Notes: generated by a model not told the origin, from the sequence alone. DNA of 9,765 nt from a virus (IMGVR_UViG_2609459769_000004), one strand, 5' to 3'; counted from the first letter of the stretch, positions 669-9,285 are shown. Numbers and translations are program-made.

Positions 669-1364
669 TCAGCCTGCAGGCCATCCAACAACGTAACTGC
701 GGATCGCCTTCAGCTCTGTCAGCGCCTCAACCTCTGCTTTCATCTGCAACTGCCGTGTATTAATCTCCACCCCCTTCGCAAACATCGCCTGCTCTGTCGC
801 ATCCGACAGGGCTATGATGTCTGCCGCCGTCACCGGCACCACATTATTATCCCCGTCGGTCCAGGCAAAACCTTCCGGAAGACGGTTATTCTCTGCCATC
901 AGGCGTGTCATGCTTATCCTGGACAACGTCTTCTTGCCGTAATCCCAGTTCCTTCCGTTGAATTCCATCATGTATTCCATATTCTCCTGCACATCACGCC
1001 AGATATTAATCTCTTCCCTTTTCGCCGCTTTTGCCGCTTCCAGTACTGCTTCCGTGGCGACAAAGGCACTCACACTTCCGTACGTTCCTGCTGTCAGCCC
1101 AGACCACAATGCTTTTCCGTGTTCTGTATTATCCGTTTCCGTTGCAGTATACGGCAGCCATACCTGTTCCCCTTTTTCATTCACCGCGTCTTCAAACTGC
1201 ACCTCACAGTTTATCCCGCCATATTCGTTGCTGGCTGCATTTCGTACTGCAAGAATCTCTTTTCCCTTATCCACCATGACCTCCTCTATGATATGCGCTG
1301 AAATAATCCTGCCTGTCTGATACCCGGAGATGATGTCCATAGCATCGGACCACATGCACGCCAC
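669..1364 (-). CDS. Phage tail-fibre assembly protein (Tfa / P2 gpG-like); start uncertain (ATG at 1277 has SD GAGGAGG, the longest ORF starts at 1364)
   Basis: C-terminal region ...[27 protein letters not shown]...[17 protein letters not shown] resembles Tfa/gpG C-termini (PENFTW-like motif, ending in a WP motif). It lies directly downstream of the tail-fibre fragment, as in stf-tfa pairs. Confidence 0.5.
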
Positions 1365-1771
1365 GTGCCCGGTAAACGGGTCTCCCCCACATTACCGGAA
1401 GCAACCAGGGGAGTACCATTCGAAAGGCAGCATGCAGACAGTGATGACCCGGCAACAGTTGAGCCAGGGGCACGGTCCCCCGAATAATGCGTCTGGTAAT
1501 ACGCCGCAAGAACAAAAGAACCGACACCAAACAGCCCGCTGTCAGGGCTTCCGGATGGTCCCCGTGGTCCTGCCGGGCCTGCAGCTCCCGTATCCCCTTT
1601 CGGTCCCCGTGGTCCTGCCGGGCCTGCAGCTCCCGCATCCCCTTTAGGTCCCTGAGGACCTGCCGGCCCTGCAGCTCCCGTATTCGCGCCAGTTCTCCAC
1701 CTTCTGACCGTGCATACCATCAGGGTAAAAATTTGCATCCTGTACGCCTGCCGCCGCCAGCTTCTGACCAA
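1286..1771 (-). pseudogene. 5'-truncated phage tail-fibre gene fragment with collagen-like repeats and a distal C-terminal domain
   Basis: Minus-strand frame encodes [43 protein letters not shown] followed by ...[20 protein letters not shown], a tail-fibre-tip-like GTWRxxG motif. There is no plausible N-terminus: the in-frame sequence upstream is interrupted by a stop at 1784 and overlaps the preceding ORF. Confidence 0.55.
1557..1690. repeat. 45-bp tandem repeat, about 3 copies, encoding collagen-like Gly-X-Y triplets on the minus strand
   Basis: GGTCCCCGTGGTCCTGCCGGGCCTGCAGCTCCCGTATCCCCTTTC at 1557-1601, repeated at 1602-1646 with 2 substitutions, and a diverged partial copy at 1647-1690. 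Confidence 0.85.
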
Positions 1772-2039
1772 TCGCCTTTATCATTACTGGCGCAAGATAT
1801 CCGGCCCTGAATATGCGCACGGATTTTCTGCCTTCCGGCACAATTTGCAGCTTATCCAGTTCGGATAACTGCTGCTCCCCAAGCCACACAGGAGGCTCAT
1901 TATCTCCGGCCATACGCGCGTCATGTTCCTGCCATTGTTTTGCGTGTGACCAGGCATCACTACCCGCAAAAATAATGACTTCTGTTTCTTTGTGTTTTAT
2001 GCCGCGTGACTGCTGTTTTACGTTCGGTGCCAGTTTCAT
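1644..2039 (-). CDS. Hypothetical protein, 131 aa; probably the 5' fragment of a larger gene that reads into the collagen-repeat DNA
   Basis: ATGA start/stop overlap with the upstream ORF and SD AGGGG 6 nt upstream. The last ~15 codons overlap the collagen repeat in another frame and look like read-through (…[10 protein letters not shown]). Confidence 0.4.
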
Positions 2040-2335
2040 TTTTTACCCCTGAATCCGTTAATCATGGTTTTCAGCTTCTGGATGTTTGCCCGTGCCCTGG
2101 CGTTGCTGGTGGGCACGTTATGCGGCGCGGTCTGTACCAGAGAAAAATCACGCCGGAACTGATAAACAGGCATCACGCAATCATATTCGTAACCTTCACG
2201 GCGGTAGGTTACGCGCCGTTCTTCCACGCCCTTAATCATTACCGTGCCGCCGTACTGGTCGCGGTAAATATCACCGCGCGTAAATTTAGGGTGAGTGTTG
2301 CCACTGGCAGTTAAGCCAGAATATTTAAGTTTCAT
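2036..2335 (-). CDS. Small hypothetical phage protein, 99 aa
   Basis: SD GGAGA 5 nt upstream of the ATG, and ATGA overlap with the next gene. Protein MKLKYSGLTASGNTHPKF...RRVTYRREGYEYDCVMPVYQF. Confidence 0.5.
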   Translation of the reverse strand: MKLKYSGLTASGNTHPKFTRGDIYRDQYGGTVMIKGVEERRVTYRREGYEYDCVMPVYQFRRDFSLVQTAPHNVPTSNARARANIQKLKTMINGFRGKK

Positions 2336-2340
2336 TATTT

Positions 2341-2574
2341 TTATTCTCCGGTGTGCTGTTCTTTATATCTGTCGTGCAATAGATCTATTTCTTGCAGTTC
2401 CATTATTACAGGCTCAAGAAGCGTTATTAATGCCGTGGCAATTCTTGATTTTTGTTTGTCGCATTCATTGTCGCCAAGTGTTTCAAGCCATATGCGCAAT
2501 ATTTCCTGCATGTTTTCACTGTGAGAAAGTGCAAGAAATGCGCGGTCTATTGTTTCGAGGTAAATATCACGCAT
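2341..2574 (-). CDS. Small hypothetical protein, 77 aa
   Basis: SD GAGGA 9 nt upstream; start overlaps the upstream gene's stop by 8 nt. Confidence 0.45.
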   Translation of the reverse strand: MRDIYLETIDRAFLALSHSENMQEILRIWLETLGDNECDKQKSRIATALITLLEPVIMELQEIDLLHDRYKEQHTGE

Positions 2575-2800
2575 GGCTTACATCCTCAGGAAATTTTCTT
2601 CTGTAACGCGCCTCTGCCACATATTCCGCATAATCGGCGGCGATATTCAGTACATCAAGTCCCGTTGATTTATATTCTTTCGTGGAAAGTAAGAAAAAAG
2701 CCGCTCTAATAAGTTCTGGCATTGACGAAAGCGCATCAGCCGCATCATCAGGAACGCCGGAAAATTCCTGTTTCAGGGAATTAAAACGATCATCACGCAT
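2567..2800 (-). CDS. Small hypothetical protein, 77 aa (MRDDRFNSLKQEF...); alternative start at 2812
   Basis: Start lies 2 nt downstream of a G8 tract (on the coding strand) and overlaps the upstream gene's stop, suggesting translational coupling. Confidence 0.4.
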   Translation of the reverse strand: MRDDRFNSLKQEFSGVPDDAADALSSMPELIRAAFFLLSTKEYKSTGLDVLNIAADYAEYVAEARYRRKFPEDVSHA

Positions 2801-3014
2801 AACCCCCCCCATTTTCACAATCAGCAACAAGAATATTTTTAGCGTCATTCAGTGACCGCGTTGCGGTGTATCGGATACATTCCAGGGCGAATAGTGTGTA
2901 TTCTTCCCTTTCTTCCTTTTGTGCAAGCTCTGCTGTGCATTCAATATCAATAAGCGCGTGCATCAGCGTAGTGAGTGCGGCGGCGGCTGCGTCCGGTGTG
3001 GTTTTATTGCACAT
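2793..3014 (-). CDS. Small hypothetical protein, 73 aa (MCNKTTPDAAAAALTT...); the longest ORF extends to 3068
   Basis: SD GGAGGGG immediately upstream of the ATG at 3014. The C-terminus ...ENGGGYA is encoded across the G8 homopolymer. Confidence 0.4.
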   Translation of the reverse strand: MCNKTTPDAAAAALTTLMHALIDIECTAELAQKEEREEYTLFALECIRYTATRSLNDAKNILVADCENGGGYA

Positions 3015-3234
3015 GTACCCCTCCGCATTTTTTTTCGTTAGAAATAAGCGTTCTTCTTTCCTGTTCATCGATCAGGAATACGCAGACCTCACCGCTAAGG
3101 CGTTTAAGTAAGCCGATGATTGCCCCTGATTCGCTGTCGGTCATCATGCCAGGGTAATCCTCTGCCAGTGCGCAAATAACTTCGATTTGGTGGGCGCGTT
3201 CTGCTGCCTGTTGTAGTGTGATTTCCTGGCTCAT
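3004..3234 (-). CDS. Small hypothetical protein, 76 aa (MSQEITLQQAAERAHQIEV...)
   Basis: ATG overlaps the stop of the Icd-like gene (ATGA), consistent with translational coupling. Confidence 0.45.
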   Translation of the reverse strand: MSQEITLQQAAERAHQIEVICALAEDYPGMMTDSESGAIIGLLKRLSGEVCVFLIDEQERRTLISNEKKCGGVHVQ

Positions 3235-3425
3235 AAGCCTACCCCCTGGCGAATACGGGCGGCGAATACAGCAACACAACCGGACGGGCAACGGCTACGC
3301 GCTTCGCGTTCCGTCCAGGCGGTTACGTGGATGATTTGAGATTCTCCGGCACTTAGTGCCAGAAAACGCCACACAAAGGCAGTTTGTGTGTGCGCCAGAC
3401 GTGGGGTATGCTGTGTTCCAGCCAT
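3231..3425 (-). CDS. Icd-like small protein (host cell division inhibitor Icd-like family), 64 aa; first gene of the leftward operon
   Basis: SD AGGAG 8 nt upstream of the ATG. Protein MAGTQHTPRLAHTQTAFVWRFLALSAGESQIIHVTAWTEREARSRCPSGCVAVFAARIRQGVGL carries the T-E-R-E-A-R ... F-A-A-R motif I associate with Icd-like proteins of P4-like prophages (from memory). Confidence 0.5.
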   Translation of the reverse strand: MAGTQHTPRLAHTQTAFVWRFLALSAGESQIIHVTAWTEREARSRCPSGCVAVFAARIRQGVGL

Positions 3426-3612
3426 AATCGTTACTCCTGTTAACGGTTTGGTTAGACGCCCCGCTACTGCCGCAAACAGTTCGGGGCGTTGTCGTTTACA
3501 TCCTCTTACTGAGGTGTGATTTAAATTAAATTCAACTGAATCACAGGTCAAGTGTTTTTTGTGATTCTTTTTTGTGTATACTGAATCACATCTTTTGTTT
3601 AGGAGAATGCAC
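3426..3612. promoter_or_regulatory. Divergent control region between the Icd-like operon (leftward) and a regulator gene (rightward), with repeated operator-like motifs and a leader hairpin
   Basis: Four copies of GAATCACA / TGTGAT(T/C) in alternating orientation at 3515-3522, 3537-3545, 3560-3567 and 3582-3590, about 22 bp centre to centre. Candidate -10 TATACT at 3577-3582 for the plus promoter; candidate -35 TTGACC (complement of 3546-3551) for the minus promoter. Hairpin ACGCCCCG / CGGGGCGT at 3456-3489. Confidence 0.55.
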
Positions 3613-3918
3613 ATGGCAAAAAACACTATCAACGACAAATCAAAACAGATTTCAATTCGTATCCCACATGATGCTTTTGATGGCATGGAATCCGTAAAAC
3701 TGGACGGCGAAAGCAACGCCGGATTCATAGTAACCGCCATGCGCGGTGAAATCGCCCGCCGCCAGGCAGAAGGAAGCGGAGAAAACCTCCTGATTTCTTC
3801 GCTCAATGCACTGGCGCAGGTGGAAAAACTCGGAATCAAAGCCGCCGAGGAGATCGGGCAGCTCGTCACTGTCGCACGTGAAGAACTCCAGCGCCGCAAG
3901 ACTAAAGAACCAGAGTAA
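3613..3918 (+). CDS. Putative DNA-binding regulator, 101 aa, possibly ribbon-helix-helix
   Basis: SD AGGAG 7 nt upstream. N-terminus KQISIRIPHDAFDGMESVKL... fits a beta-strand-then-helix RHH pattern. Divergent from the operator array. Confidence 0.4.
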   Translation: MAKNTINDKSKQISIRIPHDAFDGMESVKLDGESNAGFIVTAMRGEIARRQAEGSGENLLISSLNALAQVEKLGIKAAEEIGQLVTVAREELQRRKTKEPE

Positions 3919-4541: not shown

Positions 4542-5120
4542 TTACTGAATACGCTCACCAAAGTAAAACTCAGGCTGATATTCACGTATCAGCCTTTTTT
4601 CTTCTTCCTCCAGTTCACGTTTTTTGCGCTTACATGCCTGTAGCGCCCTCCCCTTCTCGCTGGCACTTATCTGGTATTGCTCTTTGCGGCGGGAAAAATC
4701 CTGTAATGCACCCCACGGGATACCATAAGCCCCCGTTTTTCTGATACCCGGTATCACATTTCTGAATACCCAGTTACTGAAACGATGGGCGAATGTGCCT
4801 TGCGTCGTTGCTTTGCGGCTACGGGCTATTAGTTTGTAGAAACCTGACTCAGAGATAATGCTCATATTCTGATTTCCTCCTGGGGTGTAAGTTAAATTTA
4901 CTCCCTTTTCATCATCATCAAGCATCTGCAACGCCGTACGCGAATTGGTCAGTTCCAGCGCAGCGCAGACATCCTTTGCAACAAACCACGGATCGCCGTT
5001 CAGATACACCACGCGAACGTTCACACCATCAAAGCGCAGAACGACCAGATCACGAAAATCACAGAATTTTTTTACATGACGTGCGTCACCCTTGCCCGTC
5101 ACGGCAATATTTTTATTCAT
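4542..5120 (-). CDS. Bro-N domain protein (antirepressor-like), 192 aa
   Basis: N-terminal ...FDGVNVRVVYLNGDPWFVAKDVCAALELTNSRTALQMLDDDEKGV matches the Bro-N signature. Charged coiled-coil-like C-terminus KRKKRELEEEEKRLIREY. SD GAGGT 9 nt upstream. Confidence 0.7.
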   Translation of the reverse strand: MNKNIAVTGKGDARHVKKFCDFRDLVVLRFDGVNVRVVYLNGDPWFVAKDVCAALELTNSRTALQMLDDDEKGVNLTYTPGGNQNMSIISESGFYKLIARSRKATTQGTFAHRFSNWVFRNVIPGIRKTGAYGIPWGALQDFSRRKEQYQISASEKGRALQACKRKKRELEEEEKRLIREYQPEFYFGERIQ

Positions 5121-5179: not shown

Positions 5180-5383
5180 TTAGTGGGGATTGGCCTGTTC
5201 TCGTTGTTTATCTAACCATGCTTCTACATCTCTACGGTGCCAGGTATGTCGCCGTCCAATTCTGAACGGCTGAGGAAAACCATTATTCTCATCTTTCCAG
5301 AAATTGATGAATGCACTCATTGCTCCATATCGCAAGATTTTCATTACGTCTTTAGTAAATAAAATATCTTCATTGGTATTCAT
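5180..5383 (-). CDS. alpA: AlpA-family DNA-binding protein (excisionase/regulator-like), 67 aa; the longest ORF starts at 5404
   Basis: Strong SD GAGGAGG 8 nt upstream of the ATG at 5383. Sequence ...ILFTKDVMKILRYGAMSAFINFWKDENNGFPQPFRIGRRHTWHRRDVEAWL aligns in pattern with E. coli AlpA (HTH, FP, W-L tail). Confidence 0.65.
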   Translation of the reverse strand: MNTNEDILFTKDVMKILRYGAMSAFINFWKDENNGFPQPFRIGRRHTWHRRDVEAWLDKQREQANPH

Positions 5384-5396
5384 TTGCTGAACCTCC

Positions 5397-6635
5397 TCAA
5401 CCATTTACTACTCTTAAACCTTTCATACCACCGGATCTATTAATTACCCCTTTTCTCGCATCATCAAAAAAATCACCGACCCATTGCATCATGATCTTAC
5501 GCTGTTCTAGATAAGTAGTTCTATTATAAATATCTCTTATTTTATCACCACTTTTATGCGCCAATGCAGCCTCGATTACATCGGGGTTAAATCCCTCCTC
5601 ATTTAAAAGCGTACTCCACATTGAACGAAAACCATGTAACGTTACAATCCCTTTGAACTTGCTGGCAGCAATTGGGGTCTTGATAGTATTCCTCCCCATA
5701 GGCGCATCTTTTGTTCTGGAGGAAAAAAACACATAACGCCCTCTTTTTATTTCCTGCATTGTTCTGAGGATACTAATAGCCTGTGATGACAAGGGAACAA
5801 CATGTTCACGATGGCATTTCATTTTATGCGCGGGGATAATCCACAAGCCAGAATCAAAATCAATCTCTGACCACTCTGCTTTAATCGCCTCACCTGGCCT
5901 GACCATTGTCAATATCTGGAATAAAAGTGCATTATGAGCTATTTGATAGGTATGAGGCACACTATCCCACCAGCTCAGAAATTCAGGCAATCTTTCAACA
6001 GGTAGTGCTGCTAATGATTTATTTTTCTTTCCTGTGAATGCAGTCTTTATCTTAAGTAATGGATTTGTTTTCAATGCTCCACAATTTACAGCATAATTCA
6101 TAATTTCATTTAATCTTGATATTAATTTTTTTTGCAACGCATTCTTATCGGATACGGCATCCAGAGCATTAATAGCTACTGGTGCTGTAATTTTTTCTAT
6201 ACTGTACTTACCAAAGAAAGGAACAAGATATTTGTATACTTCATATTCGATATTATACAGCGTAGGTTTCCGCAATTCAGATCCCTTTTTAAAAGCGAAC
6301 CATGCATTAGCAATAGCTTCAAATGTCTGTAGATTTTTTAGTGACATCTCAATTTTACGATTTTTCTTCTCCGTCACTGGATCAACTCCACGTGCAATCA
6401 TTCGCCGAAGTTCATCACGTACTTCCCGTGCTTCCGCGAGTGAGAATTCAGGAAAACGTCCTATCGTGTATGTCTGCCGTTTCTTCGTTATCGGATGGCT
6501 ATAACGGAAACGCCACACTTTCCCACCGGCTTTACTCACATTCAGCAATAAACCGAACCCATCATAAACGGCATAGTCCTTTTCACGTGGTTTCATCCCC
6601 TTAACTTCAGTCACGGTTAATGGCTTTACCGACAT
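5397..6635 (-). CDS. int: Tyrosine site-specific integrase, P4-type, 412 aa
   Basis: N-terminal arm-binding-like region (LLLNVSKAGGKVWRFRY), C-terminal catalytic region HGFRSMWSTLL...GDKIRDIYNRTTYLEQRKIMMQW with candidate catalytic Tyr. SD GAGGG upstream. Confidence 0.9.
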   Translation of the reverse strand: MSVKPLTVTEVKGMKPREKDYAVYDGFGLLLNVSKAGGKVWRFRYSHPITKKRQTYTIGRFPEFSLAEAREVRDELRRMIARGVDPVTEKKNRKIEMSLKNLQTFEAIANAWFAFKKGSELRKPTLYNIEYEVYKYLVPFFGKYSIEKITAPVAINALDAVSDKNALQKKLISRLNEIMNYAVNCGALKTNPLLKIKTAFTGKKNKSLAALPVERLPEFLSWWDSVPHTYQIAHNALLFQILTMVRPGEAIKAEWSEIDFDSGLWIIPAHKMKCHREHVVPLSSQAISILRTMQEIKRGRYVFFSSRTKDAPMGRNTIKTPIAASKFKGIVTLHGFRSMWSTLLNEEGFNPDVIEAALAHKSGDKIRDIYNRTTYLEQRKIMMQWVGDFFDDARKGVINRSGGMKGLRVVNG

Positions 6636-6796
6636 CTATCGCCCTCATTTTTTAGTCCGTCATGTAGTCCATTCAAGCCAATAACAAGCGATAAACTAAC
6701 TCATTATCAAGCAAAGAGAGGAAACTCATAAAATCACAACTCATTGAAAAGACTATGAAACGACACCAGAACATACAAACAGGTAAGAAATGTACC
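6636..6796. promoter_or_regulatory. AT-rich integrase-upstream region with three direct AACTCAT repeats; candidate int promoter / attachment-arm region and junction with the truncated terminase
   Basis: AACTCAT(T/A) at 6698-6705, 6723-6730 and 6738-6746. The region lies between the integrase start (6635) and the premature end of the terminase ORF (6797). Confidence 0.3.
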
Positions 6797-7804
6797 CTAC
6801 ATCCAGAATGACGCAATCCGGGAATTTCGTGGCGTTCCGGTGATACTGCCGTCCGCCACCGCCCGTTCACCTTCACGAAGCCAGATCCCTTTGTTATTCA
6901 GTTCGCGTTTCTGCTCAGGGGCAATCAGCCCGCGACAATGCGGACACATCAGACGGGCAGCCTGACCGGCAGCCACAAAATCCGGGTTATTCCGGTATCC
7001 GGTCATGTTATCCATCACCGGCTGAAAATATTCCCCGCAGTGCGGACACGGCCAGTACCACCGGCGGCGGTCTCCCCGGTTATACAGTGACAGGATCCCC
7101 GTTGTTGGCGGTGCCTCATGTGCGCCGCCACAGCGCCATTTGGTGTCAGTGATATCCCGCCCCGGCGAACTCTCGACCAGGGTCATCCCCGAGGACATAA
7201 AGGTGGTGGTACGCTTTGATGCCAGGGTGAAGGCATCCCCTTCCCCGTCCACGTTTTCAGGGAAACGGTCATAATCCGTCAGCGCCACACGACGGTAATC
7301 CGAAGAAGAAAATACAGTGATCGACGGCCAGCCAATCTTCAGGAAGGAGCCGTCAAGAAACATTTTATCGTGGACGTTGTTGTCATTACGGGAAGGACTG
7401 AGGCGCTTGCTGACCTCCGGACTGTGGCGAAACGTTCTGGAAAGACGCGTTCTGGAATGCTCACGCGCCTTCGTCTCAGTCATCTGCACCACCAGCATAT
7501 CCGCCGGATCACAGATGATGCCGTACACAATCCAGCCATCAATCAGCCCTTCGGTTTTCCCGGTTCGCGCAGGTCCCACAAACACCACCGCGTCATATTC
7601 ACGGGCTGATAATGTATTAATGGGGTCAATCATATAGGGCGTCAGCGATGACTCCCACGGACCGGAAGTATTGGCTCCCCGTGGTACCCGCATATAACGC
7701 CTGATGGCTTCCGCTACTGGTAACCGGCTGGGTGGGCGAAACAGCGAGGCCACTTCGCGCCAGATATCGGATGCGCGGCTATGGCTCTCGTTCACCTGAT
7801 TCAC
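6797..7804 (-). pseudogene. Terminase large subunit (lambda gpA-like), N-terminal 335 aa only; truncated
   Basis: SLFRPP...VAEAIRRY, Walker-A-like GPARTGKTE, CPHCGEY...CPHC and NKGIWLREG parallel lambda gpA. Lambda gpA is about 640 aa; here the ORF ends at ...ASFWM* with no continuation. Confidence 0.85.
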
Positions 7805-8277
7805 ATATCGGCCTCATCACAACAGTCAATGACTGCCTTTTCCAGTGTATCGCGGATCTCATCAACCACAATCTGTACTTCATTCAGTTGTGATGCGGTC
7901 CACCCCCTGTCCCTCTCCAGCCGGTCAGGCCAGGTTTCCAGTACCTGAACTATCGCTTTCACCACGACAGAAAAGGACCGCCTGACATCACTGACTGGCA
8001 CAAGCTGAACAGTTTCATGCTGAAATTTAAGACGCTCGCGCTCGGACTGATACCATGCCTTCCGATCATGTGGGTTCATCTCTTCATCTTCGGAAGCCGG
8101 TGGTTTTTCCAGCAACGAAATAATCAAATCCGTCAGGAGATACATTTTTTTCTTTTCATTACTGCCTGGTGCAAGAGGAACATCCGCCATTCTGGCGGCA
8201 ACAGTCTGCCGGTGCAGACCTGAAAGGGCTGCCAGTTGATTAATATTTAACTTCATATTTTTCAGCTCGCCGTCCAT
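7801..8277 (-). CDS. Terminase small subunit (lambda Nu1-like), 158 aa
   Basis: N-terminal HTH-like LNINQLAALSGLHRQTVAARMAD parallels the start of lambda Nu1. SD GGAGGG 7 nt upstream. Stop overlaps the TerL start (ATGA). Start is about 187 bp from the putative cosN, as in lambda. Confidence 0.85.
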   Translation of the reverse strand: MDGELKNMKLNINQLAALSGLHRQTVAARMADVPLAPGSNEKKKMYLLTDLIISLLEKPPASEDEEMNPHDRKAWYQSERERLKFQHETVQLVPVSDVRRSFSVVVKAIVQVLETWPDRLERDRGWTASQLNEVQIVVDEIRDTLEKAVIDCCDEADM

Positions 8278-8289
8278 TCACATCCCTCC

Positions 8290-8490
8290 ACATAAACCGC
8301 TGAACAAAAGTGGCTCTTTTTTTGTAAAGAAATGCCGCCATATAAAGATGTCGAACAAAAATCAACCACAATCATCATCTTTTTAATGCTAAATACATTA
8401 AAAACAACAAGTTACGCTAATGATGATGATGACGATAAAATCACAAAAATGCGCCTTTTTCCGCGCCGTCCGCCCCGTGTTCAGGCCCAC
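8290..8490 (-). other. Lambda-like cos site region (cosN about 8464-8475, cosB towards Nu1)
   Basis: Minus-strand GGGCGGACGGCG resembles the lambda cohesive end GGGCGGCGACCT. Downstream CGTCAT...AACTTGTTGTTTTTAATGTATTTA parallels lambda CGTCATAACTTAATGTTTTTATTTA (recalled from memory). No ORF of 60 aa or more on the minus strand in this interval. Confidence 0.5.
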
Positions 8491-8729
8491 CCCACCAGGA
8501 GGACCCGCAAAAACGATAATGGTTATCATTTTCAATGTAGTCCGGTTTCTTCCACCATCGCACCGGACAGGCGACTATGAGGGGACAACGCCGCGCTCCG
8601 TTAACGCGGTAAACCCCGGTGTGTATCGTTTTTGATTATCCCCGCACACTCGCGCAGAGGAGTCTCCCTGTCGGGCTGCGGTCTCTGTTAATGAGGGAAT
8701 ACAGCGACGATACGGCGCATCAACAAAAC

Positions 8730-9197
8730 TTATTTCAGGCACTGAGTACGGATATATTCCTGCGCCCCTTCCAGTTGCTTGTGCATCGTCATCAGCCGCT
8801 CTCTGAGGGTGAAATAATCCCGTTCAGCGGTGTCTGCCAGTCGGGGGCCGGTTGCATTATCCACGCGGGCGGTGCCGGTGGCTTCACGCACGGGACCTGG
8901 ACAGGTGGCGTTGATACGCAGGCGCTTACGACCAGCGGCAACGTCAGCGCGAAGAGTTTCATTTTCAGCTCTCGCATCGGCTAATTCCCTCGAGTATTTT
9001 GCATCGAGCGCAGCAACATCACGCTGACGCATCTGCATGTCAGTAATTGCCGCGTTCGCCAGCTTCAGTTCTCTGACATTTTTGTCGCGCTGGGCTTTGT
9101 AGGTAATGGCGTTATCACGGTAATGATTCAGCCCCAGACTAAGCGCACCACAGGCCACCAGCATGACAATAATCACCACACACAGAACACGGTTCAT
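8730..9197 (-). CDS. Rz: Rz i-spanin, 155 aa
   Basis: [67 protein letters not shown]... is near-identical in pattern to lambda Rz, with an N-terminal TM segment. Confidence 0.9.
8792..8977 (-). CDS. Rz1: Rz1 o-spanin lipoprotein, 61 aa, embedded in the +1 frame of Rz
   Basis: [61 protein letters not shown] has a lipobox LVVSAC and proline-rich core matching lambda Rz1. Confidence 0.85.
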
Positions 9198-9198
9198 A

Positions 9199-9285
9199 TC
9201 ACCACCAACGGATTGCCCAGACCAGAACAGCAATGGCCACAATACGAATGGCAAATGCCATTGCCCGAATAAGTTCAGCACTCAT
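9199..9285 (-). CDS. Candidate 28-aa hydrophobic peptide immediately upstream of Rz
   Basis: ATG at 9285; [28 protein letters not shown]; stop TGA is 1 nt before the Rz ATG. No recognisable SD, so this may not be expressed. Confidence 0.2.

Follow-up and report, generated by a model that had tools for sequence, protein, structure and literature searches.

The window analysed here, the whole 9,765-nucleotide stretch of the viral sequence IMGVR_UViG_2609459769_000004, contains a broken packaging gene next to an integrase gene. Its large-terminase gene (terL, gpA family; 6797-7804, minus strand) ends at ...RIASFWM* after 335 codons, and an AT-rich gap of 161 bp (6636-6796, 36.6% G+C) holding three AACTCAT repeats separates it from a P4-type tyrosine integrase gene. 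These features had been described in the original prediction, made from the sequence alone, and were confirmed at their positions. In the lists below, 'helper' denotes the lambdoid prophage to which the terminase belongs, 'satellite' the smaller integrase-bearing element, and attL the proposed integrase-side attachment (att) junction between the two.

7801..8277, minus strand: helper small-terminase gene terS, DUF1441 family (Pfam DUF1441, E=1e-48)
6797..7804, minus strand: N-terminal half of helper terL (gpA family), 335 aa, with a complete GpA_ATPase domain
6800..6808, minus strand: att core at attL, TTCTGGATG on the coding strand, corresponding to the F-W-M codons of terL
6800-6806: putative 7-bp crossover overlap CTGGATG, within the att core
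6797-6799, minus strand: stop codon TAG of the truncated terL, supplied by the satellite
6636..6799, minus strand: attL arm (integrase-proximal), AT-rich, with TAGGGTA, the ATGAGTT/AACTCAT repeats and a GGACTA pair
5397..6635, minus strand: satellite tyrosine integrase, P4/CP4-57 type, 412 aa, co-oriented with terL (Pfam domains; phrog_1)
5180..5383, minus strand: AlpA/Xis-like helix-turn-helix (HTH) protein, 67 aa, putative excisionase and regulator (phrog_66, E=9e-7; weak HTH_17)

A Pfam domain search finds GpA_ATPase complete in the terL open reading frame (ORF) of the window (residues 45-308, profile positions 2-247 of 247, E=8e-82) and detects no nuclease domain there. As had been predicted, the missing C-terminal half does not lie elsewhere in the window: tblastn with a gpA nuclease half returns a best E-value of 0.5. 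In an intact 699-aa TerL homologue from strain EC43 (comparison locus L002), GpA_ATPase covers residues 40-303 and GpA_nuclease residues 325-643, and the att core maps to about positions 2-5 of the GpA_nuclease profile. The domain limits of this intact protein therefore place the insertion site at the very start of the nuclease domain. Insertion occurred at the F-W-M codons, at the boundary between the ATPase and nuclease domains, with the satellite supplying a stop codon directly after the core.

Approximately 3 kb around the junction find end-to-end matches in 57 complete E. coli genomes (98.7-99.2% identity), including O157:H7, O121:H19 and O22:H8 strains. In several comparison loci (L001, E. 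coli strain 2015C-3107; L004, O157:H7 Z1835; L086 and L105, E. coli; L087, O121 RM8352; L094, Salmonella), an element of 10-10.4 kb parts the ATPase half of terL from its nuclease half. The downstream piece, annotated 'terminase gpA endonuclease subunit, missing N-terminus', directly abuts the element and is followed in L001 and L004 by the helper's head-tail joining gene, its portal gene and the rest of the head/tail operon; in the other loci, too, the nuclease half precedes portal and head genes. The 10.4-kb block of these two loci encodes the integrase, the 67-aa HTH protein, a BRO-N protein, a divergent YlcI/YnfO gene, an Icd-like protein, small ORFs, a DUF4222 protein, a D5-type primase, a single-stranded DNA-binding protein (SSB), a fusion of ClpP protease and major capsid protein, and a 93-aa ORF. 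Across the full-length elements the replication gene is either a primase or RepA, and the copies in L001, L004 and L094 contain no tail, lysis, portal or terminase genes of their own. The integrase, alpA-like, primase, terS and terL genes all lie on the minus strand of the window and are likewise co-oriented in these three loci.

The same 9-10 bp occur at both ends of the element in L001, L004, L086, L087 and the Salmonella locus L094, and only once in the intact terL genes of L002 and of the O111:NM Stx1a prophage (L003). Joining the flanks yields an open, uninterrupted frame, ...RIASFWMEGPAAAYQTW.... When 1 kb from each side of the L004 element is joined at the 7-bp overlap, the reconstructed 2 kb has zero stop codons in the coding frame and is 100.000% identical to the terL of L003, in which positions ~3663-3750 represent the exact empty site of the O157:H7 composite. 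The L003 gene is annotated 'frameshifted; internal stop' because of a 44-bp tandem duplication ~235 bp 5' of the core. The joined flanks of L087 match the intact terL of L002 without gaps at 99.75% identity over 2 kb. The comparison with intact-terminase and empty-site genomes that the original prediction called for thus defines the ends of the element (99.75-100% match over 2 kb) and bears out two of its proposals: an integrase-bearing element has inserted into a prophage packaging gene, as the distal terL half, the in-frame rejoining and the exact empty sites indicate, and the att site is not at a tRNA, the core lying in terL codons of a window without tRNA genes (tRNA scan).

The site is conserved well beyond this copy. 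Both TTCTGGATGTAGGGTA at attL and the TAGGGTA adjoining the core are invariant across E. coli, Salmonella and Rahnella. The same codon is used in divergent terL alleles (L087, L105), whose N-terminal half is too diverged for megablast and whose satellites carry integrase genes 99-100% identical in DNA. In the Salmonella relative L094 (integrase 76% identical), 10.2 kb separate attL from attR, beyond which comes the nuclease half; the attL of a Rahnella relative (68%) is the same. Alignment of these sites places recombination in the 7-bp overlap (C/T)TGGATG, with attB as ..TT/CTGGATG/GAG.. and attP as ..CTTCTTC/CTGGATG/TAGGGTA.., so that the reconstructed attP junction has the form …TTATTTACTTCTTC[C/T]TGGATGTAGGGTACATTTC…; the O157 lineage has the overlap TTGGATG versus the target TTTTGGATG. 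A simple 9-bp core with indels was considered and replaced by the 7-bp overlap, which fits L004, L086 and L094.

As a separate observation, the helper of L001 is a hybrid whose parental switch falls exactly at the att core (L001 10083-11082 and 21510-22505): the N-terminal half of its terL is 99.8-100% identical to the L003 lineage and the C-terminal half 99.6% identical to the L002 lineage. Recombination between different helper prophages may be bridged by the satellite or its integrase, and shared satellites may in this way put mosaic breakpoints exactly at the att core of the helper terminase.

We conclude, with a probability of about 0.88, that positions 6636-6808 are the attL, or integrase-side junction, of a satellite of the phage-inducible chromosomal island (PICI) type, inserted by its own integrase into the gpA-family terL of a lambdoid prophage. 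The configuration is that of the PICIs called helper-embedded (HE-PICIs), a kind known since 2023: satellites that reside inside a lambdoid helper's late genes and are co-oriented with them (Tommasini, Mageeney & Williams 2023, NAR Genom Bioinform, PMC10111431), with Eco567.11capE of E. coli NRG857c as the founder (PMC10111431; 11capE, locus L005). No earlier description appears to exist for the integrase lineage, for the gpA site or for the arm motifs.

The arrangement suggests how such a satellite would be timed. The integrase gene and the AlpA-like gene lie directly 3' of the truncated terL in the same orientation, and helper late transcription probably reads into both, because no promoter-like or terminator-like site is found by consensus scans in the attL gap (nor in the attR arm). 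Such read-through would trigger excision of the satellite late in induction; excision would in turn restore terL, so that helper packaging would be delayed, while the satellite would be packaged via a cos-like segment common to it and the helper, possibly into capsids containing its own ClpP-protease/capsid fusion. This scheme combines the published HE-PICI model, partly tested for 11capE (PMC10111431), with the anatomy seen here. The AlpA/Xis-like protein (RefSeq annotation WP_001095275.1) matches phrog_66, labelled 'excisionase and transcriptional regulator', and a GAGGG Shine-Dalgarno sequence lies 7 nt 5' of the integrase ATG.

The remainder of the window comprises further helper genes and the surviving part of the satellite:

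8730-9281, minus strand: Rz/Rz1 lysis genes
8314..8513, no strand assigned: helper segment 5' of terS, the expected cos location, with a homologous segment within full-length satellites
4542..5120, minus strand: BRO-N antirepressor-like protein, the satellite 'Bro zone' (Pfam Bro-N, E=5e-20; phrog_2593 anti-repressor, E=2e-85)
2036..3918, no strand assigned: satellite regulatory and small-gene zone, gene order as in L001 and 11capE
3574-3918, plus strand: YlcI/YnfO-family gene, part of the small-gene zone together with small ORFs
2036-2335, minus strand: DUF4222 gene, part of the small-gene zone
1684..2039, minus strand: satellite DNA primase, first ~120 codons, remainder deleted (phrog_864 DNA primase)
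1680..1683, no strand assigned: deletion junction with GTAT microhomology, satellite primase against collagen-repeat tail-fibre gene

Rfam at gathering threshold matches nothing in the whole window, and therefore no C4/isrK-type immunity RNA is detected in it. Between 2049 and 4540 the window is 75-85% identical to L001 or unalignable with it.

Unlike the integrase/terminase junction, the other boundary of the satellite is an ordinary deletion, separate from the insertion. DNA identity to L001 and the full-length satellites ends at position 1680, within primase codon ~120; the primase fragment shares 80% identity with the L001 primase over residues 1-120 of the latter. The satellite primase accounts for window 1680-2049; window 1-1683 matches the right end of a prophage found in other genomes (tail-fibre gene with collagen repeats, DUF4376 protein and chromosomal ykgJ-family gene beside tRNA-Ser), and the two matches overlap by 4 bp, GTAT (1680-1683). 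A matching att core had been anticipated near 1650-1790, but no co-oriented core is present there. Core-like matches are at chance level (5 found versus 2.4 expected) and include an exact inverted CATCCAGAA at 2076-2084 and several with one mismatch. The deletion removed the rest of the satellite from primase codon ~120 onwards, attR, the nuclease half of terL and the helper head and tail genes. Because attR is gone, this copy cannot excise; it is a decayed, immobile deletion remnant. No complete E. coli genome spans the 1680-1683 junction or has the overall arrangement of the window, so this junction can be checked as a possible assembly artefact. Collagen-like Gly-X-Y tandem repeats in the N-terminal region of the tail fibre (window 1286-1771, minus strand) lie right at the deletion junction.

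Features related to packaging are best seen in the full-length copies. These contain an ~200-bp segment 84-85% identical to the helper region 5' of terS: window 8314-8513 is 95% identical to the helper segment of L004 (23015-23217) and 85% identical to the satellite segment of the same locus (11763-11964), in which a second, partial copy occurs at 14409-14501. The shared segment, located where cos is expected, is a candidate cos-like region and fits packaging of the satellite by the helper terminase. The full-length satellites also encode a 629-aa ClpP-protease/major-capsid fusion (L001 11998-13887; L004 6273-8252), deleted in the window, which is homologous to the helper's own fusion protein (~65% nucleotide identity, two segments) and might redirect capsid size. 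Near-identical integrases are found with different replication modules, namely a RepA helicase (L105 7998-9398), a DUF927 primase (L094 13305-15428) and a D5_N/DUF5906 primase (L001 15497-17311); the Bro and regulatory zones differ as well.

Within the gap, two repeated motifs compete as candidate binding sites. AACTCAT occurs on the plus strand at 6698-6704, 6723-6729 and 6738-6744 (coding strand: ATGAGTT), at distances of 57-97 bp from the core, and the original prediction took these repeats for integrase arm-type sites. Their clustering within 47 bp as three direct copies speaks for this idea, as do the arm-binding domain of the integrase (Arm-DNA-bind_3) and TGAGTT-like copies in the other arm (direct at -182, inverted at -46). 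The whole window holds 5 copies of AACTCAT against 1.35 expected. Of 5000 dinucleotide-preserving shuffles of the gap, only 2.9% contain any 7-mer three or more times, which also speaks for the idea, although the clustering, while real, is only moderately unusual. Against it, a copy 93% identical in DNA keeps two of the three repeats, having lost the middle one, and none of the three is present in the orthologous attL arms of Salmonella (integrase 76%) or Rahnella (68%), despite their invariant core and TAGGGTA. In contrast, a direct pair of the form GGACTA-N6-G(G/A)AC(T/C)A, with 12-bp spacing, lies 23-57 bp 5' of the integrase start in 12 of the 12 clade members compared (the window, L086, L088-L092, L095, L096, L098, L100 and L101; integrases 45-100% identical). 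In the window the pair occupies 6653-6658 and 6665-6670 (minus strand), and in E. coli and Salmonella alike the attR arm has an extra GGACTA at a distance of 67 bp from the core. An arm-site role for AACTCAT is therefore doubtful, and the corresponding claim of the prediction is not supported. GGACTA, kept across the clade where AACTCAT is lineage-specific, is the better candidate for a conserved protein-binding site, the pair being a candidate integrase arm site or AlpA operator.

Three other explanations of the locus were weighed. That the junction is a non-specific deletion or illegitimate-recombination hotspot in a decaying prophage, with the integrase abutting a broken terminase by chance, would account for a window that lacks the C-terminal half of terL, has a genuine microhomology deletion at 1680-1683 and is arranged as a whole like no complete genome. 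Yet the full-length copies hold that half at the far end of the element, with the core at both ends; their flanks, once joined, restore the frame and agree with empty sites at 99.75-100%; and three genera as well as divergent terL alleles share the insertion position. The hotspot alternative offered in the original prediction, like a simple deletion, is thus refuted for the integrase/terminase boundary, and its probability is negligible. Scarcely more credible is the idea that the element is no helper-dependent satellite and that its integrase comes from another, complete temperate phage integrated within a defective one or in tandem with it. The element does have phage-like genes (integrase, antirepressor, primase, SSB and capsid/protease fusion), but it measures merely 10-10.4 kb without tail, lysis, portal or terminase genes, follows the Gram-negative PICI organization of int-AlpA, Bro, replication and late zones (PMC10111431), and shares a cos-region homologue with the surrounding prophage. 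An element that mainly benefits the host, as a switch or as anti-phage interference that keeps the terminase split and virion production blocked, is unlikely but deserves more weight than either. Full-length TerL is certainly abolished until excision, many composites look degraded (insertion sequences and pseudogenes in L001 and L086, and this window itself), and the HE-PICI study could not recover virions (PMC10111431). The cos-like segment and capsid gene of the satellite point instead to packaging, and the element is spread over several terL alleles, several E. coli lineages and three genera, a distribution for which horizontal transfer is needed; interference and mobilization can, in any case, coexist.

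Several observations weigh against the favored interpretation, an embedded satellite excising by its own integrase. In L001 (attR 11083-11091) and L087 (attL ~15404-15413) the core is off by one nucleotide at its left edge (TTCTGGATG versus TTCTTGGATG or TTCCTGGATG), and terL would be left with a +1 frameshift if the L087 element excised at the 7-bp overlap. The excised attP junction (pattern ACCTTTTATTTACTTCTTCN{1,2}GGATGTAGGGTACATTTC) has 0 hits in IMG/VR and 0 in Joint Genome Institute (JGI) metagenome contigs, and the element is absent from GenBank phage records, which contain the integrase in no case and only distant BRO-N matches; mobility is for these reasons deduced from comparative genomics only. 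The promoter and terminator scans were simple consensus scans. Finally, carrying over the induction behaviour of HE-PICIs is an assumption, because both the integrase and the attP motif differ.

The integrase (Pfam Arm-DNA-bind_3, Phage_int_M and Phage_integrase) is 99% identical to a 657-member E. coli cluster in the protein database and is carried by 96 of 5426 complete E. coli genomes, lying beside a terminase fragment in nearly all of them, among the matches listed. The element is present in O157:H7, O121, O145, O103, O45 and O111 strains. Since the Sakai lambdoid prophages are reported with intact terminase genes except Sp4 (PMC2669165), it is not a named Sp element. Among GTDB species representatives the best integrase match is only 40% identical, a scan that missed close Enterobacterales relatives present in the protein database, where a graded series is found. 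All sampled relatives of at least 44% identity are encoded directly 3' of phage late genes and co-oriented with them, and the late-gene contexts that sampled members at 44-100% identity occupy in Enterobacterales number ten, two types of gpA terminase among them. Besides the gpA site of the window, these are:

Lambda-type gpA cut at ...FHIW, core ~TCTGGAC: E. coli, integrase 59% (L089)
Head-tail gene of no identified family after an FII-like gene: E. coli, integrase 60% (L088)
S78 protease gene: Salmonella, integrase 63% (L095)
PF09950 capsid gene cut at 153 aa: Raoultella and a viral operational taxonomic unit (vOTU), integrase 52% (L096/L097)
DUF2213 head gene: E. coli, integrase 50% (L092/L093)
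Terminase_2 terS: E. coli, integrase 50% (L098/L099)
Baseplate genes: Enterobacter, integrase 49% (L100)
Type-3 portal gene: Pantoea, integrase 45% (L101)
Tail-tip genes: Providencia, integrase 44% (L102)

Gene interruption was verified for the gpA sites and the PF09950 capsid gene; the other contexts reflect neighborhood alone. No tRNA gene occurs in the nine late-gene loci scanned, a set that excludes L088 and L089. The viral contig L096 (ENA vOTU_01619, 42 kb) carries its 52% integrase behind a major capsid gene truncated at 153 aa; as it comes from a vOTU, composite helper and satellite genomes may occur in virome data.

More distant relatives differ in their targets. At 41-42% identity, two lie at tRNA-Pro after yejM, and at 33-40% identity, 57 of 60 have a tRNA or tmRNA gene 170-550 bp upstream. 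The integrase is 25% identical to that of 11capE (87 bits), and none of the 120 relatives listed exceeds 105 bits against the latter. In a neighbor-joining tree, computed without bootstrap, all sampled embedded members form one clade, with 11capE as a distant outgroup. The late-gene clade is nested among tRNA/tmRNA-targeting P4/CP4-57-type integrases and is ~25% identical to the published HE-PICI clade. On balance we lean, by a slight degree, towards a second, not yet described integrase clade with a tropism for prophage late genes. If so, embedding in a helper evolved on two or more occasions, or else integration modules were exchanged on the HE-PICI backbone.

Helper-embedded satellites have a single description, which ties their lifestyle to one clade of integrases whose attP motif is unique. 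The element studied here combines that satellite backbone with an unrelated integrase and with a new site, in the gene responsible for packaging the DNA of helper and satellite alike; confirmation would make helper embedding a more general and possibly convergent strategy. For annotation, 'truncated terminase' calls beside integrases may often represent intact split genes rather than decay. An exact empty site lies in an Stx1a prophage, and such satellites could influence how Shiga-toxin-type lambdoid phages recombine and produce particles. As for this window, its junction is explained and its copy is dead.

Compared with the published HE-PICIs, the element shares the lifestyle and the backbone. 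It is inserted in a late gene of a lambdoid helper, with int, alpA and primase co-oriented with that gene; terL is split, with a stop after the core, in-frame rejoining and flanks equal to empty sites. There is no replacement sequence for the target gene, and the att identity block is short (7-10 bp). Four ordered zones are recognizable, as in HE-PICIs: Integration (Int and AlpA/HTH), Bro, Replication (primase/SSB) and Late (captured late genes). They are full in L001, L004, L087 and L094, whereas the window keeps the Integration and Bro zones, small ORFs and 120 primase codons. One gene of the late zone is homologous to a helper head gene, and a cos-region homologue is common to satellite and helper. 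The gene order is that of 11capE, with a primase 82%, an SSB 80% and one small ORF 95% identical.

The differences concern the integration module and the target. The integrase falls far below the 400 bits to the 11capE integrase required for inclusion among HE-PICIs (PMC10111431), and the AlpA-like/HTH protein has no detectable similarity to its 11capE counterpart. The doubled attP motif tgTGTATTGCantgTGTATTGCa, located at about -81 and +132 from the core and called unique to HE-PICIs (PMC10111431), is missing here: the 479-bp attP reconstructed for this element contains neither TGTATTGC nor its complement. While the HE-PICI terminase sites (A:Terminase_1:132 and A:Terminase_1:245/246) all belong to Pfam Terminase_1 (PMC10111431), the target here is a gpA-family terminase (Pfam GpA_ATPase/GpA_nuclease), outside their 14 sites. 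Neither a gpA name nor any of this element's att 12-mers appears in the HE-PICI supplementary tables and att alignments (PMC10111431).

Other systems resemble the element in part. Gram-negative PICIs such as EcCICFT073 (Fillol-Salom et al. 2018, PMC6092414) and the fis/hpt PICIs have the same int-alpA-Bro-primase backbone, small size and lambdoid helpers, but they occupy chromosomal housekeeping sites and interact with their helpers in trans only, whereas this element lies inside it. The P4/CP4-57 integrases that target tRNA or tmRNA genes belong to the same superfamily, have the same domain set and are the nearest relatives outside the clade (33-42% identity). Unlike them, the sampled clade members of at least 44% identity are found without tRNA among phage late genes; the core here lies in terL codons, and tRNA or tmRNA targets appear only in relatives of at most 42% identity.

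Genes split by integrative elements also include Bacillus subtilis sigK, interrupted by the skin element, and Listeria comK, interrupted by phi10403S. As in those cases, the split gene is restored by precise excision only; unlike them, it belongs to a helper phage, so that the timing presumably serves the satellite and not the cell. A complete module for head formation and packaging (terS, terL, portal and connectors) is found in capsid-forming PICIs (cf-PICIs). The full-length copies of the present element likewise encode a capsid-related protein of their own, the ClpP-protease/major-capsid fusion. Concepts of 'regulated gene integrity' and of phage regulatory switches have been discussed (PMC10111431). 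Unlike cf-PICIs, the satellite described here carries the protease/capsid fusion alone and depends on the very terminase that it interrupts.

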